Shown here: in pieces, positions 557 through 60,672 of the stretch | Layout of the letters: each line of letters opens with the position of its first letter | Position numbering within the stretch: position 1 is the stretch's first letter | Assembly (NCBI GenBank): GCA_963790305.1 | Contig: CAWBOC010000010.1 | Location: forward strand, 32,001 to 96,000 | Reading direction: 5' to 3' | Length of the DNA: 64,000 nucleotides | DNA from: an uncultured Gemmatimonadaceae bacterium | GTDB lineage: Bacteria > Gemmatimonadota > Gemmatimonadetes > Gemmatimonadales > Gemmatimonadaceae | Made by a program: the position numbers and the translations under genes | The notes under the pieces: model-generated | The model's database searches: none | Told to the model about the DNA's origin: nothing | What the model saw: the letters and a program-made list of their open reading frames with translations, nothing else

Positions 557-666
557 AAGGTTGTCTAGGTCGTCGAGGTCGTCGAGGTCGTCGAGGTGAT
601 CAAGGGAAGGTGGTCAAGGTGTTACCTGGACCACATCGACATCCTCGATGACCTCGACGACCTCGA
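557..666. repeat. Tandem-arm hairpin element, 9-mer family A (GAGGTCGTC / GACGACCTC)
   Basis: (GTCGAGGTC)n GAGGTGATCAAGG, spacer, then CCTGGACCACATCGACATCCTCGATGACCTCGACGACCTCG; lies between divergent genes. Confidence 0.9.
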
Positions 667-719
667 AGTTCGGCACACCCATTGCCCCCGCACGGTAGCG
701 TACCCTTTCGGAGTCTTAA

Positions 720-971
720 ATGGACATCCTCACCTGGATCATCGTCGGGCTGGTCGCCGGAGTGCTCGCGTCGCTTGTCGTGGGCGGCGGCTTCGGAATC
801 ATCGCTGACATCGTCATCGGGATCGTCGGTGCGTTCGTCGGCGCCTGGCTGTTCCGCACACTGGGCGTGAACAGCCCCTTCGGCGGAATGGCGGGGACGA
901 TTTTCATCGCCTTCGTGGGCGCGTGTGTGCTGTTGCTGATTCTGAGAGCGTTTCGCCGGCGCAGCGTCTAG
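720..971 (+). CDS. GlsB/YeaQ/YmgE family (transglycosylase-associated) small membrane protein
   Basis: 83 aa, WIIVGLVAGVLA...IVIGIVGAFVG...AFVGACVLL glycine-rich TM pattern; GGAG RBS. Confidence 0.92.
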   Translation: MDILTWIIVGLVAGVLASLVVGGGFGIIADIVIGIVGAFVGAWLFRTLGVNSPFGGMAGTIFIAFVGACVLLLILRAFRRRSV

Positions 972-977
972 CGCCAA

Positions 978-1062
978 AGGGTGTCGAGGGTGTGGAGGTG
1001 ATCGAGGAGAAGCAACGAATTTCCCTCGATCACCTCGACACCCTCGACATCCTGGACGACCT
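978..1062. repeat. Tandem-arm hairpin element, family A
   Basis: GAGGTGATCGAGG, 16-nt spacer, CCTCGATCACCTC, with 9-nt outer units; fills the convergent junction. Confidence 0.9.
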
Positions 1063-1067
1063 CTGCC

Positions 1068-2111
1068 TCACTGATACGGCCTCAAATTCCACTCCAGGAA
1101 CGCCCACGTGCGGTTCCAGGAGTCGCGCTGCTCCGGGGTGTCCTCCCGCTCGAGCGTCTCCCGATTCACGCGGCGCGAAAAGCTGTGACCGCTCGGCGGA
1201 TCGACATACACCTTCGTCTCCGCCAGGTCGGGCTTCTTCGCCCGCAGCGCGCTGATGATCTGCTCGCCTTCGACGAAGTTCACGTCGTCGTCATTTGTCG
1301 CCACGTGCACCAGCAGCGGCACTTGCAGCTTGTCGACGTGGTAGAGCGGTGAGCGCTCGACGTAAATCTCCCGTTTCTCGAAGGGCAGCCCGCCAATGCG
1401 GCGTTGCGTGGCAAAGTTGCGCTGATAGTTGGGACCCTTGTACGAGAGCCGGAAGATGAGATTGGTGACCGGCACGATCGCCACGCCGGCCTTGAAGGGA
1501 TGCGACTCCCGGAAGAGCAGGAGATTCGTGATGTAGCCGCCGTGGCTCCAGCCCATGATGCCGATGCGAGCCGGATCGACGTGTGGGAGCCGCTTCAGGT
1601 AATCGACCGCCGTCAGCACATCGTCGAGCTCGTACCCGCCGTAGTCGATCGCATTGTGAAACTCGCGGCCGTATCCCGTGCTCCCACGGTAGTCGGGGGC
1701 GATCACGACGTACCCGCGCTCAACCGCCTCGCGCACGAAGGGCCAGGCCGTCTCCGTCCAGCTTCCGTGCACACCGCCGTGTACCCACACCATCGCCGCG
1801 TGTCGCCGAGGGCCGCGCTTGTTGAGTGGCTGAAAGACGTACGCCGGGATGTCCATGTCGCCGACGCTGCTACGGTATGTCACCTTCTGATAGTCGACGA
1901 CCCCGCGAGTACGCGCGCGATAAATGCTGTCTGTGCGCGCCTTGGCCGCCATGTCACGAGCGAAATCGCGCGGAGGGTGGTCCTCCCAATTGTCGCTGAC
2001 GTAGAGAGAATCGGCACGAGTCACTGGGCGGGCTCGCTGCCCGTCCTGCGCCGGTGCGATGTTGACGCAGGAGATCAGGACGGCAGTGCCGAGCAGGAAT
2101 GCAAGCCTCAT
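1068..2111 (-). CDS. Secreted S9 (prolyl oligopeptidase family) serine peptidase
   Basis: Signal peptide MRLAFLLG; HGGVH, DYRGSTGYG, nucleophile GWSHGG, DDDV, GHSF. Confidence 0.9.
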   Translation of the reverse strand: MRLAFLLGTAVLISCVNIAPAQDGQRARPVTRADSLYVSDNWEDHPPRDFARDMAAKARTDSIYRARTRGVVDYQKVTYRSSVGDMDIPAYVFQPLNKRGPRRHAAMVWVHGGVHGSWTETAWPFVREAVERGYVVIAPDYRGSTGYGREFHNAIDYGGYELDDVLTAVDYLKRLPHVDPARIGIMGWSHGGYITNLLLFRESHPFKAGVAIVPVTNLIFRLSYKGPNYQRNFATQRRIGGLPFEKREIYVERSPLYHVDKLQVPLLVHVATNDDDVNFVEGEQIISALRAKKPDLAETKVYVDPPSGHSFSRRVNRETLEREDTPEQRDSWNRTWAFLEWNLRPYQ

Positions 2112-2119
2112 TCGTGAGC

Positions 2120-2161
2120 TCCAGGTCATCGAGGTCGTCGAGGTTGTCCAGGTGGTCAAGG
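2120..2161. repeat. Family A element, left arm only
   Basis: TCCAGGTCATCGAGGTCGTCGAGGTTGTCCAGGTGGTCAAGG; right arm degenerate. Confidence 0.8.
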
Positions 2162-2230
2162 CCACTTCCTCAATTCTGGGTCCTGCGTCATGATGTGTCA
2201 TCCGTCCCACACAAAGGCAACCCGGTTTCC

Positions 2231-5085: not shown

Positions 5086-5132
5086 GAACGCGGAATGCGG
5101 ATTACTGATTCCGCATTCCGCATTCCGTATTC
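5086..5132. repeat. Tandem-arm hairpin element, 7-mer family B (GCGGAAT / ATTCCGC)
   Basis: GAACGCGGAATGCGGATT ACTG ATTCCGCATTCCGCATTCCGTATTC between two convergent stop codons. Confidence 0.9.
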
Positions 5133-5137
5133 TCTTC

Positions 5138-7000: not shown

Positions 7001-7086
7001 CAGGTTGTCGAGGTCGGCGAGGATGTCGAGGTGATCCACGTGAAGTCACCTCGACCACCTCGACATCCTCGACGACCTGGACAACT
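7001..7086. repeat. Tandem-arm hairpin element, family A
   Basis: Four 9-nt units in each arm, short loop; between divergent genes, ends 8 nt before the namZ ATG. Confidence 0.9.
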
Positions 7087-10762: not shown

Positions 10763-10892
10763 TAGGGGTCAGGGGTCAGGAGTCAGGGATCAGGGGGTGT
10801 CGGGGTAGAGGTTCGAGGAGAACGGCTTTGCACTCTCCTGAAACCTTCGCCCTGACACCCCCTGATCCCTGACCCCTGACTCCTGACCCCTA
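10763..10892. repeat. Tandem-arm hairpin element, 7-mer family C (GGGGTCA / TGACCCC), ~58-bp imperfect stem
   Basis: TAGGGGTCAGGGGTCAGGAGTCAGGGATCAGGGGGTGTC ... GACACCCCCTGATCCCTGACCCCTGACTCCTGACCCCTA. Confidence 0.92.
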
Positions 10893-10952
10893 GGCTGTAC
10901 GAATTCCGTAAGCCCTATTGCTCCCCACGCGCGGGCACCCGACCCTTTACAA

Positions 10953-13394: not shown

Positions 13395-13405
13395 AGGGCT
13401 AAAGG

Positions 13406-13472
13406 CTGCGAACGGCGAGCTGCGAACTGGAGCCGACTTGTTTGGCTTTGGTTCGCAGTTCGCCGTTCGCAG
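13406..13472. repeat. Tandem-arm hairpin element, 7-mer family D (CTGCGAA / TTCGCAG)
   Basis: CTGCGAACGGCGAGCTGCGAAC ... GTTCGCAGTTCGCCGTTCGCAG. Confidence 0.88.
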
Positions 13473-13560
13473 TCGTTTCTTTACACTTCCGTCATGCCAT
13501 GAAGCAAACCCTCCTTCACTCTCGTAGTGTCGAACCACGAGGAAACCAGAGAGTGACGTC

Positions 13561-14138: not shown

Positions 14139-14149
14139 AGCGACCAACA

Positions 14150-14238
14150 ACTGCGAACTGCGTACTCCGAACCAAAACCCTCGGGAAGCTACCGCCGCCA
14201 CTGGTAGCCTCCCGAGGGTTTAGTTCGCAGTTCGCAGT
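14150..14238. repeat. Family D element enclosing a ~19-bp inner inverted repeat (possible bidirectional terminator)
   Basis: ACTGCGAACTGCG..AAAACCCTCGGGAAGCTACC-9nt-GGTAGCCTCCCGAGGGTTT..AGTTCGCAGTTCGCAGT; convergent junction. Confidence 0.88.
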
Positions 14239-14243
14239 CGCCT

Positions 14244-17200
14244 CTAGCTCCGAGCGATCTCGACGATCACCATGTGCGGCTGACCGTCATCGATGAGTGG
14301 AATGCCGCCGACGCCGACGGTTCGACCATCGGCTGTGATGCGCGTCGCCTCACGAGGAGCACCGTGCGTGATCCTCACGTCGATCGTGTACTGACTGGAC
14401 CCATACCGGTACTCGATGGTGAATCCCGGCCACTCACTCGGCACGCTCGGATCGATTATCACTGTCTCGCCAGTCTTGCGGAAGCCGAGGATCGCTTCGA
14501 GCGCGACCCGATACATCCAGCTCGCCGAGCCCGTGTACCAGGTCCAACCCCCGCGGCCGACGTGTCCCTCGGCGGTGTAGACGTCTGCCGCCACGACATA
14601 GGGCTCGACCTTGTACGTCTCCACCCCGACAGCGTCGCTCGTGTGCGAGAGCGGATTGATCATCTGCCAGAGCGCGAGCGAACGCTCATCATTGCCCATC
14701 ATCGCCGTTGCCAGCACGACCCACAGCGCGGCATGTGTGTACTGCGCCCCGTTCTCGCGCACGCCGGGGAGGTATCCCTTGATGTAGCCGGGATCGTTGG
14801 GTGTCTTGTCGAACGCCGGGGTCAGCAGCTTGATGATGCCGTGCTGGTTGTCGACGAGATGCGTCTCCAGCGACGACATTGCCGTGCGCGCACGGTCAGG
14901 ATCGGCGGCACCGGAGATCACCCCCCACGTCTGTGCCAGCGAATCGATCTTGCACTCGTCGTTCGCGTGCGATCCCAGCGGCGTGCCGTCGTCGAAGTAC
15001 GCCCGGCGATACCATTCACCATCCCAGGATGTCTCCTCCACCGCGGCGACGTACTCCTTCGCGGTGGACTCGAGCCATTCCCATACTCCCGCGTGACCGC
15101 GCTCTCGCGCATACCCGGCGAACGACCGCATGATCGTGGCGAGGAACCATCCCATCCACACACTCTCGCCCTTGCCCTCGATCCCGACGCGGTTCATGCC
15201 ATCGTTCCAGTCGCCGATCCCGATCAGTGGGAGCCCGTGATCACCCTTCGTCGCCGCGCGGCGCAGCGCGCGCAAGCAGTGCTCGTAGACGGTCGCGTGC
15301 TCCGATGACACGCGCGGCAGATCGAACACTTCGTGCTCGTCAGGCGCGAGCGGCCGCATCTCGAGGAAGGGGACGCTCTCATCGAGCACGCTGGCATCGC
15401 CCGTGACGCGCACGTAGTGGTCGACGACGAGCGGAAGCCAGGCAAGGTCGTCCGAGAAGCGCGTGCGAATCCCGCGTCCCTCGGGTGGGTGCCACCAATG
15501 CTGCACATCGCCTTCGACGAATTGGCGCGACGTGGCGCGGAGAATGTGCGCGCGCGCAATCGCGGGCTCGGCGTAGACGAGCGCCATCACGTCCTGGAGC
15601 TGATCCCGGAAGCCGTACGCACCACTCGACTGATAGACGGCCGATCGTCCCCAGATCCGGCACGCGAGCGCCTGATAGAGGAGCCACCGGTTCACCATGA
15701 CATCGAAGCCGGGATCCGGCGTCTTCACGACCACCGCCGAGAGCAATCGGTCCCACGAGGCCACCTGACGGTCGAGCTCCGCCGTTGCTTGCTGCGGAGT
15801 GCGATGACGACCCAGCAACTCTCGAACGCTCGCCTCGCCATGATCGGCACCGAGCAGGGCGATGATCTCACGCGTCTCGCCGGGCTTGAGGTCCACCACG
15901 CATTGAAGCGCCGCGCACGGATCGAGGGCCGGGCCGGCCGCTTCATGCAGCAGGGAACCGGGCTCGCGCAGCGCCGCCGGATCGCTGGCGTCGCCATGGC
16001 GACCCAGGAATTCGCGGCGATCCGCCGTCCACGTATGCACGCGCTCGCTCAGCGCCGCGAACGCCACCATCCCCGCGAACGGGGCATCGGTCGTGTTGCG
16101 AGCGAGAATGGCGCCGAGCTTCCGATCGTAATCGGTCACCACCTGATGCTGGGTGTGCTCCCGCAGGACGCCGAGCGTCCACTCGGCGAAGTAGGTGACC
16201 GTTAGGCGCTTCTTCTTGCGCCCGCGATTGGTGAGACGCAGGCGCGTGATCTTCACCGGATCACGCTCGGCCACGCCCACGTGCAGGACGGACTCGATAT
16301 CGCGGTGGAGATGCTGAAAGGTGCTGAAGCCGGCGCCGTGCGTCACCACGTACTCGGTCTCGTGACGAATGGGCGTCGGCGTCGGCGTCCAGAGCGTACC
16401 GCTGTCCTCCTCGCGGAGGTAGAGGACCTCGCCCGGAGGATCGGTCACCGGGTCGTTGTACCACGGCGTGAGACGGAAGTACTGCGAATTGTCCACCCAC
16501 GCGCAGCCCGCACCGGCCTCGGTGATGTAGAACCCTGCTCGCTCGTTGGCGACCACGTTCGCCCACGGGGCCGGAGGAAGCGCATCCCCGCGCAGGGTCA
16601 TGCGGTAGTTGCCCTTGTCGTCGAAATGGTGCTCGAGCGGGGTCGGCGCTTGCAGGGCCTTCTGGATAGGGCGTTCGGCGTAGGCCGCCCGCTCCGATCG
16701 GGCGACCGACGTCCCGCGCAGCCCGGTCTCCGGGAGGTCCAGCACGCTGTCGAGACGAGTGCCGTCGCAGCGCACGTGCACGCGTGCGACCCCACGGACC
16801 ACTGCCCAGTCCTCTTCGCTGATCAGATCGCGACGGCGGATGTGAACGCCTCCGGCTCGGTCGAGGAGGCCCGCCTCGGGCGATGACATCACCGTCGTCG
16901 TGATGGCATCGTTGAGCTCCTGCAGGTAGGAGGCAGGCCGCGTGTTGACCAGCACGAGGTCGAACGTCATTCCCTTGAGCCGGAGGTACTGGTGCGCATC
17001 GAGCAGCTGCCTAACGGTCGGCAGGCCCTCCGGTGCCTCGATGAGCGCGAGGAGGATCGGCCAGTCTCCCGACAGTCCCATCGCCCAGAGCGTCTGGAGC
17101 GAGCCCTTCGACGTCGTGGTGCCCGGGGGCGACGGTCGCAGCGCGGGGTGGCCGTGCAGGAGATGGCCGGCCAACTCCTGGTAGAGCGCGGCATCGGCGG

Positions 17201-20200
17201 GGGTGATGCCGAGGTCGCGCAGCTCGACCTGCGTGCGGGTCCAGGAGAGGTCCAGGGCGCGCTGCGCCGCGTACGGTTCATCGTATCGATCCACCAGCTC
17301 GATGGCGCGCTCGCGACTGTCCGCCATCAGTGTGGTGAACGCCACACGCGCCGAGCCGCCGGCGGGAATCGTGACGCGCACGCGCAACGCGAAGATGGGA
17401 TCGAGCACGGCCCCGGTGGTGTTCGACAGAGGCCCCGGCGCCTCGAGCGCAGCGGGGACGCGTGGGGTGCGGCCTCGGCCCAGGAATCGCGCGCGATCGG
17501 TCTCGCAGCTGATCGCGGAGCGCAGGTGTGACTCGACGGCGAGGACGTGCGCTCCCCAGAGCGGCTTCTCCGTGGAGCCTCGCGGGCGCCGGCTCGCCAG
17601 GATCGCGGAGTGCTCGGGACGCCATTCCGTCTGCACGAACAGATTCGCGAACGCGGGATGCGCGCGGTCGCCCACGATCGATCCGATCACGACTTCGGAG
17701 TAGCTCGTGAGCTCCACCTGGCGTTCCTCGCCGGACCGATTGGTGACGATCACGCGACGCACTTCCGCGCCGTCGTCGGGCACGACCGCGATCTCGGTGG
17801 TCGTCTCGAGATCGCCATCCTGCCGGTGGAACACCACGCGATCGAGCGCGAACACCACGTTGTAACTGTCAGCCGGGGCGGCGAGTGGCTGGTGGCCCAC
17901 CGACCAGGTGAGGTCCGAGGCGAGATCGCGCACGTAACAGAATTGCCCGTAGTTATCGCGCGTCCCATCGTTGCGCCACCGCGTGACGGCGAGACCGTTG
18001 GCGCGCGAATAGCCGCACCCCGCCGCGGTGATCATGATCGCGTACGGCACGTTGCCGAGCAGCGCGATGCGCGGCTGCGGCGTGTCGGGAGAGGTGAACT
18101 CTCGCACGGCGGGCCGCTCGGATTCGCCCGGTGTTCGCACGCCCTCGACTTGCGGCTGCTGTGCCTCCTGCCAAACGAATCGACGTGGGATGCGCTCGAA
18201 GAGCAGCAGCTCGGCGGCGCGCACCATGGGGTCACGGTGGAAACGCTGCTGCCACCGGAGGTGTGTCAGCATGTTGGTCAACGACGCCAGGCCCATTCCC
18301 AAATGATGCGCCATGAAGGCATGGACGACGCCAAAGCGGCCACCTTCCGGGCGCGTCCAATCGAGTGCGTCACGGAAGCCGAAGCTGCCGAGCGCGCCGA
18401 GCTCCTCGAGCGCCGCCGCGTTGCGGAGGGCGGCATGGGGCTCCACATGCATCGCGAGCAGCGAGGCGTAGGGCGCGACGACGAGATCTTTCGCCAGACC
18501 TCGTTTGAGCGCGAGGTCGGGAACGCCGAAGGCGCGGTACTGGTACGTGCCGATCCGATCTCGCAGGTTGTACGCCGATTCGGAGATGCCCCAGGGTACG
18601 CCGCGCTCGTGTGCGTACGTCATGTGGCGGCGCACCGCGCCCTGGTACGTCTGATCGAGCAACGTGAAGGGATACGAGCGCATGACGAGCAGCGGCATGA
18701 GATACTCGAACATGCTCCCGCTCCAGGACACGAGCGCCGTCGCGCCAGACCGCCGCGTGAGGGTGCGCCCCAGCCGGAACCAATGTTCGACGGGCACGTC
18801 GTTCTTGGCAATGGCGATGAAGCTGGCGAGCCTGGCCTCCGATGCGAGGAGATCGTAGAACGAGTTGTCGAGACCGCCGCGCGATACGTCATACCCGATC
18901 GAGAACAGCTTCCGGCGGTTGTCGAAGAGAAACCGGAAGTCCATCTCCATCGCGTAGTCGTGGGCCCGGTTGGCCAGCACGCCGAGACGCCCGACTTGCT
19001 CGGAGAGGAACGCGGAGTCAGGCGCGACGGTTCGAATCGGCGCTCTCATCGATGATGGCTTCGCGTCGAGTGCCACGAGCTCCGCGCGGTGGCGCTCGGC
19101 GAGGGCGGTTGCCCAATCGAGCCATGCGACCGCTTTCGACAGCGTCTCACGCGATGCGCCCGCCCGGCGTAGCGCGTCCGCCGTTTCGCGAGTCTCCCTA
19201 ACGACGCGCTCCAGCAGCGGCAACGGAGCGTCCGCCGTCGCTTCCTTGGCGATCGTCGCGCGAAGGGCGCGTGCCCACCGAGTGGCATCGGTTACGGCGC
19301 GCCATGCGACCGGATCTCCAACGCGTCCGGCAGACAAGGGCTCCTTGGCGGCGTCTTCGGCAAGCATCAACGCAGCCTGCAGCGCTTCATGCACGCGCGT
19401 ATCGACGATCGGCTCGTCCGAGACGTGGAGACAGGCCTGCTTCAGCGCCAACATGCATCCGGCGAGATTGCCACTGTCGACGGTGGAGACGTAGGCAGGC
19501 TCGAGGACGCGAAGGTCGGTCAGCTCATACCAGTTGTAGAAGTGACCACGGAACCGACGCATACGCTCGAGCGAGCGGAACGTGCCTTCCAGGCCGTCGA
19601 TCATCTCGCTGCGCGTGATGAAGCCCAGGTCGTACGCACTGACGATCGAGAGCAGCTGCAAGCCCGATGTTCGTCGGCGACGTGCGTTTGGCGACGACGG
19701 GCTCCGGATCCTCCTGAAAATTGTCCGGCGCGAGCCAGTGCGTCGCCTCGGTGACGAACCGCTCGAAGAACCGCCAATGGAGGAGCGCGTATCGCATCGA
19801 CTGTGAGCGCTCCTCGGCGCTCAGACGCAGCTCGCGCCGTACGGCGGGAGCACTGGACGCATGCGCCACGTGCGGTGCGCCGATCCATCCCGCCACGAGC
19901 GGAACGGTACAGACGAGGAACAGCAGCCACGCGCCTGCGCTGCCGCCGGCGCGGGCGCCGGCGAACGACGGTACGTACGGCGGCATTCCGACGGCCGCGA
20001 TTGCCAGCACGAGCGCGCTGACCATCACCGCGATGGCAACTGCCGAGGCCATGCGCTTCCAGACTTCGAGGCTGGCGCGGGAGGTCGAGCGCTCGGTCTG
20101 TGACGCTGTCTGCCACTCGAGCAGGTTGCGGCGGGAGATGAGCAGTCGCCACAACGTGCGGGCGATCGCGTCGGCCGAGACGCCCGCCTGGTGCGGAAGG

Positions 20201-22935
20201 AATACGAGCGCGAGCCCCAGCTGATGCAGGCTCGTCACGGTGTCGCGTCCCACGGCCGCGTAATACGCGCGCCAGGATGTGCCGCGCGGGGGACGGACGA
20301 GCGCGAGGAGCGTCGAGAACACCCACGGAAACGCGATCGTCGTCAGGGCGATCATCGTCCACAGCCACGGCGAGCCGGGCAGGACCACCCAGCCAAGGAG
20401 CAGCAGCGCGAGCTGCGCGATCTCGACCGTAGAGCGCCGCAAATTGTCGAAGATCTTCCAGCGCTGAATGGCTCCAAGAACGTTGCCCGCGCGGCCGTCG
20501 GCGGTCGGCACGCGTTGGGAACAGCCAGGGCAAGAGCTGCCAATCCCCGCGAATCCAGCGATGCTTGCGACGCGTGTACGTGAGGTAGCGCGTCGGATAG
20601 TCGTCGAAGACCTCGACATCGGTCACGAGCGCGGCGCGCGCATATGCGCTCTCGATGAGGTCGTGGCTCAACAGGGCGTTCTCGGGAAACCGCCCGTGAG
20701 TCGCGCGGTCGAACGCGTCGACATCGTAGATGCCCTTGCCGGTGAAGCTCCCCTCGCCGAACAGGTCCTGGTAGACGTCCGACACCGCCGTCGTATACGG
20801 ATCGACGCCCGGATGGCCGGAGTGAATGGCCGCGAAGCGCGAGCGGTGCGCACTCGTGAGGCTCACGCCCACCCGTGGCTGCAGGATGGCGTACCCTTGC
20901 TCGACGACGCCCCGCGACTCGTCGAACACCGGGCGATTCAGCGGATGCGCGAGGGTCCCGATGAGAATCTGCGCCGCGTCGTGCGGCAGGACGGTGTCGG
21001 AGTCGAGCGTGAGGACGAAGCGCGCTTGCCGCAGCGGGTCGACATCGCCCACGATCGTGGCGAAGGCGTCCTGCGCACCCCCGCGCAGGAATGCGTTGAA
21101 CTCGCGCGAGCTTCCCACGCTTGCGCTCCCAGCCCATCCACACGCCGCTGGCTCTGATTCCACTTGCGAGGGCGATGAAAGAGATAGAACACATCGTCGG
21201 CGCCGCCGGCGTAGCGTGTGTTGAGCTCGCGCACACCCTCCACGGCGGCGGCGACGATCGCTTCGTCCCCGGGGAGCGTCTCGCTTGCCGCGTCGGTGAA
21301 ATCGGAGAGCAGCGCGAAGTGCAAGCGCGGGTCGCGGTTCGCGAGATACTGAATCTCGAGGTGCTCGAGCGCCTCGCGCGCGGCGTCGATCGATGGCAAC
21401 AGCGTGGGGACGACGACCGCCGTGCGGTACTCCGGTGGAACTCCCGTGCTCGCGCATGTCCAGCTTCGGCACAATGCGCGGCGCGACGATCCATGTAACG
21501 AGCTGATTGACGGCCCCCACCGCCATCTCACTGGCCGGAACCATCGCCACGAGCGACGACGGCCAGCATCGACTCCCGCGCTGGCCGGTGGGAGGACGGA
21601 AACGAGAAGCGCGAGACCAGCCAGCATCAACAGGAGAATCGAGCCGAAGTACACCGCCTTGGCGTGCGAGAGCACCCCGCGATACAGGCGCTCGCCGGCC
21701 GTCGGCACGTACGCGGTGCCATGCTCGAGCTCCCGCGCCCCATCACCGATGAGGTAATAGCCCACGTGCGTTCTGCGCTCGTCATCAGGCGCGCGGTCCG
21801 CGGCGTCGCGAGCGAGCGCGATCGCTGCGCGTGCGACGTCAGCCTCCGCCAGGCGAGTTCGCTTCGCGATGCGCTCAACGACGTGCCGATACCGGTCGCG
21901 CGTCTCGAACGTCATGAGGCTGTGGACGCCGGCCGGGTCCTCACGGAGGACCTGCTCGACGACGCTTTGCGATTCAACGAAGCCTTGCCAGTCGAGACGC
22001 GCGATGGCGCGCAGGCTCGTGATGCTGTTCGCGACGGTGATCTGCGTGATGGCGAGCCGCTGGTTCGAGCTCGCCGCCGCCGCTTCGTGGCTCATGCCGT
22101 CTTCGGCCATCCACTGCTCGAGCCAGAGCAGCGGGGTGAAGTCGGTCTGGTACGAGCGGATCTGCTGGAGGAAGCGCGTGACGAACGCCGGCGTCAGCGG
22201 CGGATGACTGTCCACGAACGCGGCCAGATCATCAGCGAGCGCCTGGGGCGTGCGCTCCGACGCATCGCGCAGCCGGCGCGCCCAGTCGTCGGCGAGCTCG
22301 ACTTCGCGCGTACGCGCCATGACGCGCAACGCCATCCGGCGAATGTTCTCGACCAGTCCGAGTCGGAACATCGTCGGAATGGCCCAAAGCTCTCCGACCG
22401 TAAGAACCGAGACGCGCTGAAACTCACGCGTGAAGAGATCGATCGTCGCGAGCTCGAGGTGCCCTTCGGTATGCGCGATGAGCTCGATGGCGAGCTCGTA
22501 TACGCGCGGATATCCCGCCAGCGGCCCGGAGGCGAGCTTCGGCAGCTCCCGATAGAACCCGCGCGGCATGCTCGCGCCGATCTCCCGGATGTGCTCGAGG
22601 ATCACGTACCAGTTGTCGAGCAGCCATTCGCCAGCGGGCGAGATGTCGACACTCCGGTCGCTCGCCAGTGCCAGCTCGTGGCGTGCTTCGTCGAGGATGC
22701 GCCGGGATTCGGCGAGACGAGAGAGGAGGGGTCCCGGCCCGAGCGTTAGGCGGCTCGGCCCCTCGACGAGCCGTTGGCCGCGCGCGATCGCGCGCGCGTG
22801 CTCGGCGAGCCGCTCGGCGCCGAAGAGCTCGCCGCGGATGGGTCCGACGAGTGGTGGCGCGCCGCCGTCGCCTCCGAGCGATCGGAGACGTGCGAGAATT
22901 CGCCGAGTCCGGGTCGGGGGAGAGGCGGTCGCCAT
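14244..22935 (-). CDS. ndvB: Cyclic beta-1,2-glucan synthase (Cgs/NdvB/ChvB type: GT84, glucoamylase-like and GH94 regions), several apparent frameshifts between ~19660 and ~21550
   Basis: EWLLDN, WMGWERKRGKL, TLDSDT, GEGSFTGKGIYD, LLSHDLIE, RWIRGDWQL, RTSPTNIG, YDLLASEAR, SWSGSMFEYLMP, QSSGAYGFRDQLQD, GDWNDGMN, RENGAQYTHA, WTWYTGSA; ~2,900 codons in total. Confidence 0.93.
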
Positions 22936-24407: not shown

Positions 24408-25412
24408 AGGTTTCCCTTTTCTCGCCGGTGATCGGTCTCCTCGCGACGCTCTTCGGAGCGTGCTCACGCGATGACGCCGACGCCATCGAGGCCGTCGGCA
24501 CGGTCGAGATTCGCGAGCACGACGTCGCGCCAATGACGGCAGCGCGTGTCGTGCGCCTGCTGGTCGACGAAGGCGCGGCGGTCGAGGCGGGCGATACCGT
24601 CGCCATACTTTCGATGTCGACTTTGGCCGCCGACATTGAGCAGGCGCGGGCGCGCCTCGCGACCGCGCAGGCCGTGCTGCGCGAGGCGGAGGCTGGCCCC
24701 CGGTCTGCCGAGATCGAGCGGGCGGAAGCGGACCTTCGCGCCGCCGGAGCGGAAGCCGATCGCGCGGCCAAGGACCTGGTGCGCATTCAGGCGCTGACGG
24801 AAAGCGGCGCTCTCGCCGAGCAGCAGCTCGATGCGGCACGCACGGTTGCGACCACGACCGCCAATCGGCGCGACGCCCTGCGCGAGACGCTGGGACTTCT
24901 CCGCCAGGGAACGCGTCCGGAGCGAATCGCCGGCGCGCGGGCGGAGGTGGCGACCGCACAGGCGGTGCTCGCCGCCGCGCAGGCGACGCGCTCCGACCTG
25001 GTCCTGCTCGCGCCGGCGAACGGCATCGTGCTGGGCCGGCACGCGGAGGCGGGTGAAGTCGTCCCGCCGGGAACTCCGGTGATGACGGTCGGCGAGTCGT
25101 CGAAGCCGTGGGTGCGCGTCTACGTTTCCCCGGCCGACGCCGCGCGCCTAACGGTGGGCGGCGCCGCGGTGGCGTCTCTGGACGATCTCCCCGACCGGGA
25201 GTTCCCGGGCCGCATCGTATCCCTGGCGACGAAAGCCGAATTCACTCCGCGGGTCGCCCTGACGGAAGACGAGCGCGCCGACCTGCTGTTTGCGGTGCGA
25301 GTGGAGCTGGAGGATTCGAGCGGAACGCTGAAGCCGGGATTGCCGGTCATCGTGAGATTTCTCGCGAATGCGGAACGGCGGAATGCGAAACGCGACGGGT
25401 TCGCGTCCATGA
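24404..25412 (+). CDS. HlyD family periplasmic adaptor (YbhG-like) lipoprotein; reads in frame into the ATPase as sequenced
   Basis: LFGAC lipobox, VDEGAAVEAGD, coiled coil, AEFTPR, LKPGLP; end inferred from the ATGA overlap at 25409-25412. Confidence 0.85.
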
Positions 25413-25433
25413 GCGATTCTGTCGCGCATTCCG
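25364..25433. repeat. Degenerate family B element at the HlyD/ATPase junction
   Basis: GCGAATGCGGAACGGCGGAATGCG ... CGCATTCCG. Confidence 0.65.
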
Positions 25434-26170
25434 ACGTCGCCGTATCCACCAGCCGCCTCAGAAAGACCTTCGGCTCCCTCGTCGCGGTCGAGTCGCTCGA
25501 TCTCCAGATCCAGCGCGGCGAGGTGTTCGGGCTGCTCGGGCCCAACGGCTCCGGTAAGACGACGACCATTCGCATGCTCACCGGTCTCATGCAACCGACA
25601 TCGGGAGAGGCGACGGTGGTCGGGTATGATGTGCGGCGGGAGTCGGAGGCGATTCGACGCAACATCGGCTACATGTCGCAGCGGTTCGGTCTCTACGACG
25701 ATCTCACGATCGCCGAGAACATTCGCTTTTACGCCGGCGTGTACGGCCTGATCGGGGCCGAGCGCGACGCTCGCATGGACGAGCTCATGAGGGAGCTCGG
25801 ACTCGCCGAGCGTGCGCATCAGCTCGCTGGAACACTCTCGGGAGGGTGGAAGCAGCGGCTCGCGCTGGCGTGCGCCACGGCGCACCGGCCCGCCATGCTG
25901 TTCCTCGACGAGCCGACGGCCGGCGTCGATCCAGCCGCCCGACGCCGCTTCTGGGAGACCATCTATCTCCTGGCGTCGAAAGGGACGACGATCCTCGTGA
26001 CAACGCACTACATGGACGAGGCGGAGCGGTGCCAACGCCTCGCGTTCCTCTCCCGTGGCCACCTGATCGGTGTGGGGACTGGGCAGCAAATCCTCGACCA
26101 GTTCAAGATGCCGTCCATCGAGGACGTGTTCATCGAGCTGCAGCGTCGCGACGAAGGAGCGGCCGCGTGA
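25409..26170 (+). CDS. ABC transporter ATP-binding protein (YbhF-like)
   Basis: GPNGSGKTT, LSGGWKQR, LFLDEPT, TTH. Confidence 0.95.
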   Translation: MSDSVAHSDVAVSTSRLRKTFGSLVAVESLDLQIQRGEVFGLLGPNGSGKTTTIRMLTGLMQPTSGEATVVGYDVRRESEAIRRNIGYMSQRFGLYDDLTIAENIRFYAGVYGLIGAERDARMDELMRELGLAERAHQLAGTLSGGWKQRLALACATAHRPAMLFLDEPTAGVDPAARRRFWETIYLLASKGTTILVTTHYMDEAERCQRLAFLSRGHLIGVGTGQQILDQFKMPSIEDVFIELQRRDEGAAA

Positions 26171-29553: not shown

Positions 29554-29613
29554 TCGAGGCGGCTTCACCCTTGATCACCTCGCCATCCTGGACGACCTCG
29601 ACTACCTCGACCT
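29526..29613. repeat. Family A element supplying both convergent stop codons
   Basis: TGA 29551-29553 lies in GAGGTGATCGAGG; minus-strand TAG 29602-29604 lies in the right arm. Confidence 0.9.
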
Positions 29614-34263: not shown

Positions 34264-35407
34264 GTCGGCCACCGATCGCTTCGACCTGTTCGCGATCGCG
34301 GCCCCGGGACTGGAGCCACTCGTCCAGCGTGAGCTGAAAGCCCTGGGCATCGAGGGCCTCCACGTCGACGCGGGCGGCGTCTCCTTCACCGGCGGACGCG
34401 AGGCGATCTACCGCGCCAACTTGTACCTCCGAACGGCGACCCGCGTCATCGCGCGCGTCGCCGAGTTCGGTGTGAGGGGATTCCCCGAGCTCGTACGGCA
34501 CGCGAAGCGGCAACCATGGGAGCGCTACCTCGTCGCCAACCGTCCGATTCAGCTTCGCGTCACCTGCCGAAAGTCACGTCTCTACCACTCGGGTGCGGTC
34601 GCCGAGCGTGTAGCCGACGCGATATCCCAGCGGTTGGGGGTCGAGGGAGTCGAGGTGATCAAGGGTAGCGAGGACGAGGACGCCACGGGTCAGCTCGTCA
34701 TCGTCCGCGTGGCCCACGACCACTGCGTGCTGAGCGTAGACACGTCGGGCGAGCTGCTGCACCGTCGCGGCTATCGCGAGGCGACAGCGAAGGCACCGAT
34801 TCGTGAGACGCTGGCCGCCGCGCTCCTTCTGGCCGCGGAGTGGCGCGGGGACGCGCCGCTGCTCGACCCGTTCTGCGGATCGGGAACGGTCGCGATCGAG
34901 GGCGCCTTGCTCGCGCGTCACATTGCGCCCGGCCTCAACCGTCGCTTCGCCTTCATGGAGTGGCCCGACTTCGACAGCGCACTCTGGCGCCGCACTCACG
35001 ATGAAGCCGCGCGCGCGGTGGTCGCGCGCGCGCCATCACCCATTCAGGCGTCTGATCGAGACGCGGGCGCCATCGAGGCCGCGCGCGCGAACGCGGCACG
35101 CGCCGGCGTCGCCGACGACATCGTCTTTGAGAAGAGGGCGCTTTCGGCGATCGAGCCGCCGGTGGGGCTGGGCTGGGTCTGCACGAACCCTCCCTACGGC
35201 GTGCGCGTGAGCGAACGCGCCGAGCTGCGAAATCTCTACGCGCAATTCGGCAAGGTCATGCACGCGAAATGTCCAGGGTGGACGGTGGCGATGTATTCGG
35301 CCGACGCGCGTCTCGAGAAAGCGGCGAGACTCCCCTTGCGTCCGGTTCTGCGGACGGTGAACGGGGGAATTCCGGTGCGGGTCGTTAGGGGGATTGTCGG
35401 GCAGTAA
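34208..35407 (+). CDS. THUMP-domain class I SAM-dependent RNA methyltransferase (RlmL-like), start uncertain
   Basis: PGLE...EL, ANLYLRTATRV, DTSGELLHRRGYR, APIRETLAAA, DPFCGSGT, NPPYG. Confidence 0.9.
   Translation: MPVGTSGGRSTETRTSPTRSATDRFDLFAIAAPGLEPLVQRELKALGIEGLHVDAGGVSFTGGREAIYRANLYLRTATRVIARVAEFGVRGFPELVRHAKRQPWERYLVANRPIQLRVTCRKSRLYHSGAVAERVADAISQRLGVEGVEVIKGSEDEDATGQLVIVRVAHDHCVLSVDTSGELLHRRGYREATAKAPIRETLAAALLLAAEWRGDAPLLDPFCGSGTVAIEGALLARHIAPGLNRRFAFMEWPDFDSALWRRTHDEAARAVVARAPSPIQASDRDAGAIEAARANAARAGVADDIVFEKRALSAIEPPVGLGWVCTNPPYGVRVSERAELRNLYAQFGKVMHAKCPGWTVAMYSADARLEKAARLPLRPVLRTVNGGIPVRVVRGIVGQ
34637..34665 (+). repeat. Family A left arm inside a CDS
   Basis: GGGGTCGAGGGAGTCGAGGTGATCAAGGG encodes GVEGVEVIKG in the methyltransferase. 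Confidence 0.7.

Positions 35408-39363: not shown

Positions 39364-39379
<16 letters not shown>
38441..39379 (-). CDS. cheR: CheR-type protein-glutamate O-methyltransferase
   Basis: [44 protein letters not shown]. Confidence 0.94.
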
Positions 39380-45099
<5,720 letters not shown>

Positions 45100-45341
45100 G
45101 TCACCGATGCCCACGGATTGACTCCTGATGTCTGCGTGTCTTGAGAAGCGACGCCTGGCCCGGAACACGCACAGTGGGGTGCACCGGCCTGGCAGATCTC
45201 GGATTGCTCTCGAGTAATTCGACGCTGTAGTGCAAGAAGCGAGCACTCCGATGCGCGCCCGCTTCCGAGAGGAGATCGACGGTCGCGGCGGCCCGCAGCG
45301 CACCCGATGGACCCGTTACCTTACCCCCAGTCCCGACCCGG

Positions 45342-46074: not shown

Positions 46075-46080
46075 CGACGC

Positions 46081-46156
46081 ATGCGGAATGCGGAATGCGG
46101 ATTGCGATGGCGCAGCAGCTCCAAGCCTTCAATCCGCAGTCCGCATTCCGCATTCG
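46081..46156. repeat. Family B element
   Basis: ATGCGGAATGCGGAATGCGGATTG ... CAATCCGCAGTCCGCATTCCGCATTCG; fills the convergent junction. Confidence 0.92.
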
Positions 46157-46159
46157 TCG

Positions 46160-50266: not shown

Positions 50267-50270
50267 CCCA

Positions 50271-50341
50271 GAGGTTGTCGAGGTTGTCGAGGTGATCAAG
50301 GTGAAGTCGCCCCGACTACTTCGACGACCTCGACGACCTGG
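50271..50341. repeat. Family A element
   Basis: GAGGTTGTCGAGGTTGTCGAGGTGATCAAGG ... CGACTACTTCGACGACCTCGACGACCTGG. Confidence 0.88.
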
Positions 50342-50383
50342 AAAACAGAAACGCCGGCCCTTTCGGGCCGGCGTTCTGTTTTC
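50341..50383. terminator. Bidirectional intrinsic terminator
   Basis: GAAAACAGAAACGCCGGCCC TTTC GGGCCGGCGTTCTGTTTTC. Confidence 0.92.
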
Positions 50384-53265: not shown

Positions 53266-53267
53266 GC

Positions 53268-53346
53268 AGAGGCGCTAGAGGCGCTAGAGGCGCTAGAGGG
53301 CGGTTGCCCCTCAGCGCCTCTAGCGCCTCTACGCCTCTAGCGCCTC
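53268..53346. repeat. Tandem-arm hairpin element, 9-mer family E (AGAGGCGCT / AGCGCCTCT)
   Basis: (AGAGGCGCT)3 AGAGGGC GGTT GCCCCTC then about four AGCGCCTCT units; fills the convergent junction. Confidence 0.92.
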
Positions 53347-54751
53347 AGCTTTTCGAAATCTCTCCTACCACCGCCGTCAGCATCTTCTTCGCGTCACCGA
53401 ACAGCATCGCCGTCTTCTCGTTGTAATACAGCTCGTTGTCGATGCCGGCGAAGCCCGGATTCATGCTCCGCTTGATCACGATCACGCTCTTCGCGTGGTC
53501 CACGTTCAGGATCGGCATCCCGTAGAGCGGGCTCGTGGTATCCGTGCGCGCGGCGGGATTGGTGACGTCGTTCGCACCGATCACCAGCGCGACATCCGTC
53601 CGCTCGAACTCGCGGTTGATGTCGTCCATCTCGTACAGCTGGTCGTACGGGACGTCCGCCTCGGCCAGCAGGACGTTCATGTGGCCCGGCATGCGGCCGG
53701 CCACCGGATGAATCGCGTACTTCACGTCGACGCCGCGCTTCTCGAGCAGGCGCGCCAGCTCCTTCACCGAGTGCTGCGCCTGCGCGACGGCCAGCCCGTA
53801 GCCGGGAACGAAGACGACGCTTCGCGCATAGCCGAGCATCACCGCCGCGTCCTCAGCTCGCACGGTGCGGACCGGACGATCCGCGCCATCTCCCGCCGCC
53901 GTCGTCGACGTCGCCCCAAACGCGCCGAAGAGCACGTTGGTGAGCGACCGGTTCATCGCGCGGCACATGATCTGGGTCAGGATGATTCCCGAGGCCCCGA
54001 CGAGCGCGCCGCTGATGATCAGCACGTTGTTGTGCAGCACGAATCCCGCGGCCGCGCCCGCCATCCCCGAGTAGGAGTTCAGGAGCGAGATGACGACGGG
54101 CATGTCCGCGCCCCCGATCGGAATCACCAGGAGGACGCCCAGCGCGAGCGACAGCACCGTGAGCGCGACGAACACCGCCGACATGTCGAAGTCGGCGACC
54201 AGCCACGCCGAGAGGCCGACGGCCACCGCGAGCAGCGCGAAGTTCAGCGTCTTCTGCGCGGGGAACGTGATCGCCCGTCCCGGCATGAGCTCCTGCAGCT
54301 TCGCGAACGCGATCATGCTTCCGGTGAAGGTGATCGCGCCGATGAGCATCGTGGCCATGATGCTGACCACGACGTCGGTCGCGCGCAGATCGGGGTGCAG
54401 GAGCAGCTGGTAGTACTCCGCCGCGGCGACGATCGCCGACGCCGCGCCGCCGAAGCCGTTCAGCAGCGCGACCATCTGTGGCATCGCCGTCATCTTCACC
54501 GAGTGCGCGAGCCAAATGCCGGCGACCGTGCCGATCACGAGGCCGAGCAGGATCCATCGGAACGCGATGATCTGCTGATCGAGCAGCGTCGCACCGATGG
54601 CCAGCAACATGCCGAGCGCGCCAATCGCGTTGCCGCGGCGCGCGGTCCGTGGGGACGACAGCAGCTTGAGCCCGACGATGAACAGGACCGCCGCGACGAG
54701 ATACGTCAGCGCGATGACGAGAGCGATACTGCGGGTGGGCTCGGCGTTCAC
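53345..54751 (-). CDS. pntB: NAD(P) transhydrogenase subunit beta
   Basis: MTAMPQMVA, PIGGADMPVVISLLNSYSG, VPGYGLAVAQAQ, HPVAGRMPGHMNVLLAEA, GANDVTNPAA. Confidence 0.97.
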   Translation of the reverse strand: MNAEPTRSIALVIALTYLVAAVLFIVGLKLLSSPRTARRGNAIGALGMLLAIGATLLDQQIIAFRWILLGLVIGTVAGIWLAHSVKMTAMPQMVALLNGFGGAASAIVAAAEYYQLLLHPDLRATDVVVSIMATMLIGAITFTGSMIAFAKLQELMPGRAITFPAQKTLNFALLAVAVGLSAWLVADFDMSAVFVALTVLSLALGVLLVIPIGGADMPVVISLLNSYSGMAGAAAGFVLHNNVLIISGALVGASGIILTQIMCRAMNRSLTNVLFGAFGATSTTAAGDGADRPVRTVRAEDAAVMLGYARSVVFVPGYGLAVAQAQHSVKELARLLEKRGVDVKYAIHPVAGRMPGHMNVLLAEADVPYDQLYEMDDINREFERTDVALVIGANDVTNPAARTDTTSPLYGMPILNVDHAKSVIVIKRSMNPGFAGIDNELYYNEKTAMLFGDAKKMLTAVVGEISKS

Positions 54752-58390: not shown

Positions 58391-58419
58391 CCATAGTGGT
58401 CGAACTTCGACGCACTACA

Positions 58420-58788
58420 TTAGGTGCAGATAATCACACCATCGGTGGCCGAACCGTCGCCAACCGTCACCGCGCACGTACGCGGGGTCTGGTTGTGCGA
58501 AGCGTTCGCCGAGTAACCAGCGGCCGGCGGAGGAGCCGGGGTCGCCGTAACCGTCACACCCTGCGACGACGTGAAGTTCACCGCCGCGGCCGAACCGAAC
58601 GCCTGGAAGTCAGCAAAGTAGCCTTCCTCGGCAGTCATCAGGTTGCGGAGGTCGCTCTTCATCGCCGCAACGTACGCCTTCTCCTTCGTGTTCGCGAACT
58701 TGGGGATCGCGATCGCCGCGAGAATGCCGATGATAACGACTACGATCAGCAGCTCGATCAGCGTGAAGCCCTTCCGATTGCTACGCAT
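58420..58788 (-). CDS. pilA: Type IV major pilin
   Basis: MRSNRKG/FTLIELLIVVVIIGILAAIAIP; C-terminal Cys pair; GGAAGGA RBS. Confidence 0.93.
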   Translation of the reverse strand: MRSNRKGFTLIELLIVVVIIGILAAIAIPKFANTKEKAYVAAMKSDLRNLMTAEEGYFADFQAFGSAAAVNFTSSQGVTVTATPAPPPAAGYSANASHNQTPRTCAVTVGDGSATDGVIICT

Positions 58789-58850
58789 TGTGTCCTTCCT
58801 CCGGTACGAGTCGGCGCGAGCATATGTGCACCGCGCTCGGCCGCTGATAA

Positions 58851-58866
58851 AGCAGGGGCGGTGCCA
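58851..58866 (-). promoter_or_regulatory. Sigma54 (-24/-12) promoter of the pilin gene
   Basis: Minus strand TGGCACCGCCCCTGCT has exact GG-N10-GC spacing. Confidence 0.8.
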
Positions 58867-58880
58867 TGTGAGACCCCTGC

Positions 58881-58966
58881 GCTAAGCACTGGATGGACGA
58901 ACACTTAGCATTCTGAGTCACAGCTAATGGCATCGAATCGCATTGCGTTTCGCCAAAGCGATGCGA
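58881..58966. promoter_or_regulatory. Candidate DNA-bending site and upstream activator site for the sigma54 promoter
   Basis: GCTAAG-N17-CTTAGC (58881-58909) and TCGCAT-N17-ATGCGA (58938-58966). Confidence 0.5.
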
Positions 58967-59045
58967 AATGCAAGGGGACCTGGCGCCGGTCACGATGCCC
59001 GCCTCGTCTTTACATTGCGAGGAACTTGCCCCCTTTTACGTAGCA

Positions 59046-60621
59046 ATGCCCGCTCCTGACAGCCGCCGATTCTCCGCGTCGTCTCCACCGTTCGATCCCG
59101 AAGGCGCGCTGGACGCGCTCGACGAGCCTCTCTGTGTCGTGTCGACCGCGTGGCGATTGGTGTACATGAACCGAGCGTTCGCCGAGCTCGCGATTCAGGG
59201 GGGCGAAGTCGCCCTGTCGAAAGATCTTCGGGAGATCTTCACCGCGCTCAGCACACGCGATGACTGTGATCTCGCGACCCTCGACAGCGACGCGAAGCGC
59301 CAGTGGCGCATTCCCGCGTTTGGCAGGCCTCCGCGCGCACTCGATCTCAGGGCCACGCGCTTGCGCGACGACGCCGTTCTGCTGCACGTGCGCGACCTGG
59401 GCGACGCTGACGCGATCGAGCGCGCGCTCGCCGAACGGGATGAGGAGAACGCCGCGATGCGCGCAGGTCACTATCGCGCTCGCGCGCGAGGCCGACCTCG
59501 ACTCCCTGCTGCGCGTGATCTGCGAGCAGGCATCGGCGCAGTGCGACGCGAGTGGGGCGACCGTCGTGCGATTGGTCGGAGATCGTGGCGACATCGTGAG
59601 CGCGAGCGGATCGCTCGAGGCCATGGTTGGTACCTTGTTCTCGCTCGCGGGCTCACTCACGCAGCGTGCGATCGACGAGCGACGCCCCGTTCGTGCCGAC
59701 GATTATCGCAGCGAGCATCCCCGGTTTCGCCAGGTCGCCGAGGAGTTCGAGATCGGTCCGGCGCTCTTCGCGCCACTCCTCGCGCATGACCACATGCTCG
59801 GGGCGATGACCGTCGCGCGTCGTCGCGGCGCCGCAGCCTTCTCGACGCGCGACGAGCGCCGCATCTCCGCGATCGCCGATTACGCGGCGCTGGCCTTGTG
59901 GAAGGCGCACCTCACCGACGAGGCGCGCGTGGCGAACAAGGTGAAGGGGGAATTCATCGCCACCATGTCGCACGAGCTGCGGACGCCGCTCACCGCCCTG
60001 CTCGGCTATGAGGAGCTGTTCGCCGAGCATATCCTCGGCCCGCTCACCGATCAGCAGGAAGTCGCCGTCGATCGAATGCGCACGAGCACGCAGCACCTAC
60101 AGGCCATCATCGATGAGGTGCTGACCTTCTCGCGGCTCGAGGCCGGCGAGGAGCGTGTGCACCGTCGTCAGGTGCCCGTTGGCGACATCCTCAATGGCAC
60201 CATGGCGGTCCTCGCGCCACTCGCGCACGCGAAGCGCATCGCGTTGTCGATGGACGCCGCCGAGGAGCCGCAGGTCATCCGCACCGACCCGGACATGATC
60301 CGGCGCATCCTGGTCAACCTGGGTGGCAATGCGGTGAAGTTCACCGAGCAGGGGTCGGTGCGTGTGAACGTGAGGCTCGAGGGTGAGTGGCTCGTGTTCG
60401 AGGTCTCCGACACGGGCATCGGCATCGCGACCGCGGATATCACACGTCTCTTTCAACCCTTCACGCAGCTGGATACCGGCTTCACGCGCCGCTTCGGAGG
60501 GACGGGGCTGGGGCTCTTCGTCTCCCGTCGTCTCGCGGAGCTGCTCGGGGGAGATATCGGCGTGGCGAGCGTCCCGGGTACCGGCAGCACGTTTACGCTG
60601 CGGGTACCCCTGGAGGAGTAG
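59046..60621 (+). CDS. PAS-GAF sensor histidine kinase, apparent frameshift at ~59460
   Basis: WRLVYMNRAF (PAS); GAF APLL...[35 protein letters not shown]. Confidence 0.88.
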
Positions 60622-60623
60622 CG

Positions 60624-60672
60624 CTGCGGGCTGCGAACTGCGAAGTCTCCCCGCCGTGTTCGCAGCTCGCAG
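60624..60672. repeat. Family D element
   Basis: CTGCGGGCTGCGAACTGCGAA ... TTCGCAGCTCGCAG starting 2 nt after the stop. Confidence 0.82.

Follow-up and report, generated by a model that had tools for sequence, protein, structure and literature searches.

Families of tandem-arm hairpins in a Gemmatimonadaceae genome pair with single four-helix-bundle or GxxExxY genes

Introduction

How do hairpins of unrelated sequence come to share one architecture? The question is raised by a 64-kb stretch of DNA from an uncultured Gemmatimonadaceae bacterium (positions 32001-96000 of contig CAWBOC010000010.1, here C10, in assembly GCA_963790305.1, here G000), which we call the window. The assembly has 4.31 Mb in 13 contigs and is 94% complete. 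In each complete element, tandem copies of a short word form one arm, a spacer follows, and the reverse-complement array forms the other arm. A sequence-only reading of the window had named five repeat words, and all of them are present at the positions it gave; its count of at least five unrelated units becomes six families, the sixth being at 27335-27535. It also suspected a common machinery encoded elsewhere and thought that the elements could be empty forms of small gene cassettes.

We found that the hairpins of this genome fall into families and that small genes of two kinds lie in or beside the arms, each with a different family. The elements are probably non-autonomous hairpins, each family having a single small cognate gene, enclosed by arms of that family at another place in the genome.

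Hairpin families and their partner genes

A word-free scan of G000 gave 404 pairs with spacers of up to 200 bp, or 367 once overlaps were removed. The periods of 7 and 9 that had been read from the window account for 203 and 147 of these elements, but periods 8 (10 elements) and 10 (7) also occur. The purine-rich arm leads in 366 of the 367, so the polarity seen in the window is not random genome-wide. As the sequence-only reading had expected, the elements are also more frequent than in shuffled intergenic DNA: 314 of 2215 intergenic pieces hold one, versus 0, 0 and 0 in three shuffles, and contig C9 has 82 raw pairs (period at least 7, spacer below 150 bp) versus 0 in one dinucleotide shuffle. 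About one in eight junctions of the genome carries an element. Arms are found at the same junctions in five independently assembled relatives, so the elements are not an assembly artefact. None of the sequencing runs searched contains more than 0.14 of the words; four contig sets have only pieces of relatives' DNA and do not count as evidence here.

A scan seeded with 11 families, which we lettered A to K, found 465 inward-facing pairs versus 3 outward-facing ones; the 465 counts a few pairs twice because H and I, and I and K, overlap slightly. The words and their inward pairs are GCGGAAT for A (105), GGGGTCA and also GGAGTCA for B (82), GGGAGTG for C (8), AGAYGTC for D (6), CTGCGAA for E (10), GAGGTCGTC for F (117), AGAGGCGCT for G (55), ACAGAGGGC for H (38), ACGCAGAGG for I (26), CCGCAGATGG for J (5) and CGCGGATTA for K (13; CGCGGAT in the window element).

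Families pair with genes. G000 has six four-helix-bundle genes (PF05635, IVP/Avd-like) and four GxxExxY genes (PF13366); all ten lie outside the window, within or next to arms, and no two share a family. The four-helix-bundle genes have arms of family B (C5:70534), C (C7:167359), F (C7:227884), G (C9:787676), A (C10:203260) and D (C9:163389). The GxxExxY genes have arms of family H (C5:638951), I (C5:66), J (C9:843183) and K (C5:741652). Ten genes in ten families has P=1e-5 given the family sizes and P=0.0015 if the families are taken as equal. Four-helix-bundle genes go with 7-mer families and two 9-mer families, GxxExxY genes with families of 8-10-mers. The flanks of all six four-helix-bundle genes are protein-coding genes, not rRNA.

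The idea of empty gene cassettes is supported by these ten armed genes and by five relatives that carry a full cassette at 27.3-27.57 kb of the window. The suspected machinery does have its genes outside the window, but it is not one machine for all words: there is one gene per word family, whose protein would generate or recognise the arms. Of the gene types that had been named as possible spacer contents, four-helix-bundle and GxxExxY genes were found, with 0 matches to RAYT (HUH/Y1 transposase, PF01797) and no reverse transcriptase (PF00078) found in the 94% complete genome. No other cargo was found among 16 inward pairs with spacers of 100-1300 bp; the remaining pairs among these are long empties, weak chance pairs and three housekeeping-like stretches between arms.

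The family B protein scores 111.6 bits against TIGR02436 (cut-off 24) and 29.5 bits against the Avd profile, which is below the cut-off of 80. Its structural model has a predicted local distance difference test (pLDDT) score of 94.8, and Foldseek matches it to Xcc0516 (2gsc), BT_0352 (2rld) and then Avd (4dwl/8ub7, template-modelling score 0.72-0.77). The family H protein scores 149.1 bits against TIGR04256 (cut-off 35). In the GxxExxY alignment E, D, ExK and QxxxY are invariant in 20 of 20 rows, which we take to be a PD-(D/E)XK active site; no solved structure was found for this alignment. Among named homologues, those closest to one of the partner proteins come from Gemmatimonadaceae assemblies.

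Two side observations concern gene and arms. The H-, I- and K-type GxxExxY genes (L009, L010 and L007; L081-L110 in relatives) often have a complete empty element directly downstream, not a single right arm. The strong A arms at C7:189542-189910 stand around some 300 bp in which neither PF05635 nor PF13366 matches; this may be an ordinary small gene flanked by an arm on either side.

Arm words, protein clades and populations across relatives

The arm word follows the protein clade. Paired arms were detected automatically at 58 of 75 four-helix-bundle loci in G000 and its relatives. Among the remaining 17 are several with degenerate arms or a position at a contig end, two whose long inverted ends are not tandem, and one with none. 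Our protein tree covers 68 of the 75 loci (7 were unlabelled or too short) over 105 columns and leaves many forks open. With arm labels that we assigned ourselves, each arm word occupies a clade of its own or a group of sister rows, and all 16 genus proteins with 9-mer arms fall together in one clade (support 98/93). We also looked at 80 distant homologues from many phyla. Of 77 that were testable, 57 have paired arms, with the purine-rich arm first in 55 and period 7 in 52, versus 0 of 71 distal control flanks. Separately, the inverted ends of the four-helix-bundle genes L020 and L038 of G016 are long and nearly perfect but show no clear tandem units.

Gene and hairpin population also occur together. 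The genus comparison covers nine kin genomes (G000 and G001-G008, the relatives being at about 85% identity), and their counts are not independent events. At 27.3-27.57 kb of the window a full four-helix-bundle cassette with GGGCCA(A/G) arms is present in G001, G002, G005, G006 and G007; the site has a K element in G000, a collapsed K footprint in G004 and G008, and nothing in G003. The GGGCCA(A/G) counts are 217, 99, 169, 223 and 79 in the five genomes with the cassette, 0 in G000 and 0-1 in the three others. H/I matches number 3 in G005 versus 85, 85 and 74 in G000, G004 and G008, and no GxxExxY gene was found in G005 (89% complete). Among 31 genomes the G pattern occurs only in G000 (117), G004 (83), G008 (15) and G005 (4), all of which have a G-armed gene.

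One fixed gene slot has changed its arm word within the genus. It is GCGGAAT in G000 and G006, GCGGATT in G002 and G004, and GGAACGA in G001, G005 and G008, and in 5 of these 7 genomes the slot's word is the commonest of the three words tested. Five genomes without a PF05635 match have 0 elements in 267 kb (191 kb without the 76 kb of G015, which is unpublished), and four of the five have GxxExxY genes. Five gene-bearing distant relatives have 10 elements in 400 kb.

Family replacement and shared cores

One family replaces another at the same junction. Twelve of the 16 complete window elements are of another family in at least one of five relatives. For an unbiased sample we used 800 kb from G005 and G008 with 62 elements, of which 8 had no orthologous flanks and 54 were scored; a few of the relatives' words were assigned to the nearest family letter. 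Of the 54 junctions in G000, 12 have the same family, 25 another family and 11 a single arm, while 6 are empty, so the family swapping that had been proposed does occur. Background occupancy is 11.6% for all junctions and 29% for convergent gaps. Against these two rates and a generous 40%, 25 swaps in 42 give P=1e-13, 4e-5 and 0.008. Limited permissive sites could explain part of this re-use. Spacers are usually replaced together with the arms. We rejected conversion of arms in place around a kept spacer as a general route, because the spacers of the 25 swaps are at background and only the 33.5 kb site shows it.

Spacers had been described as unique. This holds for 151 of 251 long spacers, which are singletons, but family B has two conserved core types (36 and 24 copies) and family K one shared core. 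The arms are non-palindromic tandem words with a position-specific order of units, and arms within one element are somewhat more similar than arms across copies. Nesting of one family in another was rejected as a general route: 9 of 465 rows were flagged, and it is clear only for K inside E (one full, one half).

Could it be that only the gene-bearing cassette moves, inserting behind stops or into old hairpins and later losing its interior by hairpin deletion? Some cassettes of one clade do stand at differing junctions in relatives (G-type at four sites, B-type at two), and the site of the G cassette of G005 holds an empty G element in G000. Collapse of the interior is seen in the K footprints of G004 and G008 and in a truncated cassette in G003, and the many unique spacers would fit as well. 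However, empty copies of B, K, H and some of A share gene-less family cores of 30-190 bp, which argues that empties were copied from empties, and most cassettes keep a fixed site across the genus. We consider this course of events unlikely.

Some cores cross family lines. A double-hairpin core around a TCATCAGATGA-like centre is present in 24 family B elements (e.g. in the C10:49534 region of G000), and the same type of core lies within GGGCCA(A/G) arms in G001 and G005 at window junctions 10763 and 53267, so that one core occurs with two arm families. An inner palindrome of the CCCTCGGGA...TCCCGAGGG type is found in E arms at 14170-14222 of the window, in A arms at C6:298333 of G000 and in E elements of G004 and G008.

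Position behind genes

The elements sit behind stop codons. We called 3856 genes in G000 with our own codon model, so gene ends are approximate. The 465 elements lie at 150 convergent, 248 co-directional and 50 divergent junctions, with 16 within predicted genes and 1 at a contig end. The median start is 3 bp behind the stop codon, and by family it ranges from -3 to 3 bp for A, B, F and G, counted from the upstream stop. Where a co-directional junction leaves 60 bp or more free (72 cases), 50 elements start 12 bp or less from the stop and 14 would be expected to. Convergent junctions are enriched for elements (odds ratio 4.2), and 71 of 115 convergent copies touch both stops and fill the whole gap.

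RNase III excises 23S rRNA intervening sequences, and hairpins at 3' ends might serve the host in a like manner. They would then be 3' untranslated RNA elements (RNase III sites as in the rRNA, stabilisers or anti-collision blocks), the proteins would be word-specific RNA binders, and selection would keep a hairpin at the junction. The clustering at stops, the filled convergent gaps and the re-use of junctions all fit such selection, and the proteins have a fold like that of Avd, which acts on RNA with a reverse transcriptase. Against it, the mismatches of the stems show no excess of G-U over A-C on the sense strand (G-T 307 versus A-C 295, P=0.65), and this strand symmetry is as expected for a DNA-level element. 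No U-tract follows the stem on the sense strand (mean T 2.79 versus 2.65 in 10 nt; TTTT in 5 versus 1 of 193), which leaves a role as intrinsic terminators unsupported. Many junctions are empty in some relatives, and an RNA role alone does not explain the replacement of whole elements. As a full account we think it improbable, although it can coexist with the trans-acting proteins that we favor below.

Elements in the window

Six families supply the 16 complete arm-spacer-arm elements of the window, which also has two conserved single arms and, inside a gene, one degenerate copy. The complete elements have fold z values of -4.7 to -18.6 versus shuffles. No Rfam family matched in the window.

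Family F has seven complete elements here. The one at 556-668 is of the same family in G004, G005 and G008, and that at 7001-7085 in G004 and G008. At 977-1066 the element fills a convergent stop-to-stop gap; a CAGGGTCCT family takes its place in G004, G005 and G008 and a plain hairpin in G003. The junction at 28036-28130 has CAGGGTCCT in G005 and G008, F in G001, and is empty in G003 and G002; a target-site duplication is not evident there, judged by eye at this one site. For the element at 29526-29612 the right arm is decayed in G004 and G008, mostly lost in G005 and absent in G001. The element at 50270-50345, which is followed by a separate terminator-like hairpin, is F in G001 and GGAACGA in G005. 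A single F left arm at 2122-2165 on the plus strand, between divergent genes, is likewise single in G004, G005 and G008. Kept in four genomes, it may have a role of its own.

The seventh F element, at 33515-33635, has a promoter-like spacer core (TTGAG, 17 bp, CATCTT; 33545-33585). This core is kept in 6 of 6 genomes while the arms changed, being F in G000 and G001 and of a CAGGGT(C/G)CT type in G003, G004, G005 and G008. A promoter scan made no call at the core. Flipping or extrusion of the element could affect the downstream gene.

Arms that change on both sides of a kept core would also be the mark of an enzyme that works like telomerase, extending the two 3' ends of a break with purine-rich units before they are joined. 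Head-to-head joining of such ends would produce the near-universal polarity, and this way of writing would also yield unique spacers; nearly all copies differ, as writing anew would have it. Yet no reverse transcriptase was found in G000 (94% complete), the unit order is position-specific, elements share family cores, and the spacer is not kept in the 25 junction swaps. We give this idea very little credence.

There are three elements of family A or its type. At 5087-5133 the relatives G001, G004 and G008 have a GGAACGA family, and the G004 and G008 spacers are exact reverse complements of each other, which points to an inversion between the arms. At 31226-31281 the word is GCGGATT, with GGAACGA in G004, G005 and G008. 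The element at 46080-46157 lies in a convergent gap, with GGAACGA in G004, G005 and G008 and nothing in G003. The degenerate A-type copy in a predicted gene (25365-25450) folds weakly (z -2.5) and has a GGAACGA element in its place in G005.

Family E has three complete elements. The one at 13405-13475 has a CTGCGTA variant in G004 and G008 and is absent in G001 and G003. The one at 14148-14240 is built around the inner palindrome mentioned above and is of family H (GxxExxY type) in G004 and G008. The one at 60623-60675 is E in G004, G005 and G008 and A-type in G001 and G003. A single E left arm at 40580-40616 on the plus strand is similar in G008. The family B element at 10763-10893 (GGGGTCA/GGAGTCA) has the 36-copy core type, with GGGCCA(A/G) in G001 and G005 and GGAACGA in G003. 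The family G element at 53267-53348 fills a convergent stop-to-stop gap and is G in G004 and G008. Last, the K element at 27335-27535 (CGCGGAT, GxxExxY type) marks the site of the lost four-helix-bundle cassette, with a decayed GGGCCA-like arm after it.

Two other features were set aside. An arm-like stretch at 34634-34668 is coding sequence in relatives and was dropped. A 276-bp tandem array at 42382-44571 (7.9 copies) lies within a sensor-kinase open reading frame and is unrelated; presumably it consists of repeated HAMP-type domains and is ordinary. Several genes of the window are split (e.g. 14244-22935, 39364-45114 and 61074-62993), among them a GH94 enzyme, a long sensor kinase and a dehydrogenase E1. 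These splits may be sequencing errors. Relative to the relatives' proteins, G000 has 0.184 frame changes per kb.

Discussion

We think it likely that the cognate proteins are trans-acting factors that recognise the tandem word in hairpin DNA, with cutting and repair then copying a donor element over the resident hairpin. Recognition, cutting and copying are steps that we infer from the pairing, the clades, the populations and the junctions. The protein would bind its word where the hairpin is extruded from the DNA. The resident hairpin would be nicked or broken, for the GxxExxY families by their nuclease and for the four-helix-bundle families by an enzyme of the host, and repair would copy the donor over the resident. 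Slippage would give variable numbers of units, and overwriting would be slow, leaving the copies diverged. When a gene is lost or swapped, its family would decay and its sites would be taken by families whose gene is present.

A number of observations weigh against this explanation. Binding, cleavage and movement by the partner proteins are all inferred, and we know of no catalytic activity for four-helix-bundle proteins. The cognate gene of family E was not found in G000 (94% complete); E-armed genes are present in G004, G005 and G008. The genes of A, F, G and K are frameshifted in the G000 assembly, which makes 4 versus 0.7 predicted from the assembly rate (P=0.006), and they may be real pseudogenes. 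A, F and G are three of the four largest families in G000, so if the frameshifts are real, three of the four largest are now without a working gene. Broken partner genes occur in relatives too. Identical copies are nearly absent from G000, with one pair only, and the median nearest-neighbor identity is 0.67-0.90 by family. There is thus no sign of recent copying, and we rejected recent copy-paste bursts.

The match between genes and populations has its exceptions as well. Because the genomes of the genus are related, one or two losses may account for the GGGCCA result. G007 has a G-type gene but 0 matches for the G pattern that we used, as its word differs. G004 has 71 GGAACGA matches without such a gene, and G001 has 44 GCGGAAT matches with a GGAACGA-like gene; a protein search of G001 and G004 found no further gene of the fixed-slot clade. 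Having the gene is not enough: G016, with 12 genes, and G021, with 13, both show 0 elements in the 80 kb scanned from each.

That the genes are mere passengers, landed in hairpins made by slippage and template switching with no cognate relation to them, would agree with the greater likeness of arms within an element and with the common broken genes, but is largely refuted, and we hold it highly improbable, given one gene per family (P=1e-5), the congruence of word and clade, the armed distant homologues (57 of 77 versus 0 of 71 control flanks) and the presence and absence of GGGCCA(A/G) across the genus.

The closest described system is REPIN-RAYT. In it one RAYT stands beside each REPIN group (Bertels and Rainey 2011, PMC3116915), and REPORTH reports that 13 of 20 conserved spaces contain mixed REPINs, suggesting that overwriting accompanies the exchange of RAYTs (10.1101/2024.10.14.618302). 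Repeat-specific REPtrons and TIRtrons have also been described (Di Nocera 2013, PMC3733652). Our elements work alike: they are inverted repeat pairs within 200 bp and extragenic (465 inward versus 3 outward; 16 of 465 intragenic), each family has one distinct single-copy gene, with exceptions in G001, G004 and family E, and sites are overwritten. They are not members of that system, because no RAYT was found in G000; the partners here are a four-helix-bundle protein or a PD-(D/E)XK nuclease. The arms are tandem 7-10-mers, whereas REPIN arms are short palindromes with a GTAG/CGTC tag. The gene lies in the loop of the element, and near-identical copies are almost absent.

For Xanthomonas, Rehm et al. 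(2015, PMC4692102) give 70 and 75 cases of convergent pairs of GGGAATC arrays. Like our elements, these are heptamers in convergent inverted pairs with the G-rich arm first, mostly a few bases behind genes (PMC4692102). A supplement table of that paper places repeat no. 15 at 6 nt behind bccP, overlapping the start of XCC0516, and tabulates no partner arm for it; the main text does not name XCC0516. The solved XCC0516 structure is the best structural match of our family B protein. Rehm et al. treat one family, as G-quadruplex sequences (PMC4692102), whereas we have 11 families, most without G-runs.

The intervening sequences of 23S rRNA also carry a protein of the same family (IVP/S23p; PF05635, TIGR02436) inside a long inverted repeat. 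The six genes here differ in lying between protein-coding genes, and hundreds of gene-less copies accompany them. Avd of diversity-generating retroelements is described as pentameric with an RNA role (10.1101/2023.10.23.563531). It shares its fold with the B protein, but the profile score is below the Avd cut-off and no reverse transcriptase was found here. Miniature inverted-repeat transposable elements and the small dispersed repeats of cyanobacteria are similar in being small, non-autonomous and inverted; the ends here are shared with non-transposase genes, and no transposase of a known type is tied to them. Cyanobacterial short tandemly repeated repetitive (STRR) sequences are heptamer units, like the heptamer arms here.

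Published work already covers heptamer repeats by themselves, in Xanthomonas, and the logic of overwriting, in REPINs. No link between tandem-arm hairpins and these two gene families was found in the literature searched, which left most subscription papers and bioRxiv supplements outside. What the present analysis adds is the match of one gene per family in a genome, the match of gain and loss across a genus, and family overwriting that has been measured.

Four-helix-bundle/IVP and GxxExxY proteins are widespread without an assigned function, and they gain here a concrete, clade-specific candidate substrate. Bacterial heptamer repeats, for decades without a known cause, gain a candidate maker. 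The population logic of REPIN-RAYT recurs with two unrelated proteins, one of them not known as an enzyme, and gene-plus-hairpin partnerships may have arisen several times. About one in eight junctions is occupied, and many of the elements have been replaced in relatives of about 85% identity, which makes this a major route by which 3' ends turn over. Ten matched pairs of word and protein in one genome also make a direct specificity matrix possible.

A broader and more doubtful idea, to which we hold only tentatively, is that the four-helix-bundle (IVP/Avd-like) proteins, a very large family, act as programmable readers of tandem DNA words, with one 7- or 9-base unit per clade, and use host repair enzymes and no transposase to write their own hairpins over resident ones behind stops. 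If this is true, swapping one gene of 130 residues would rewrite the 3' ends of about a hundred genes, and the heptamer repeats of Xanthomonas and cyanobacteria, so long without an explanation, would be accounted for.

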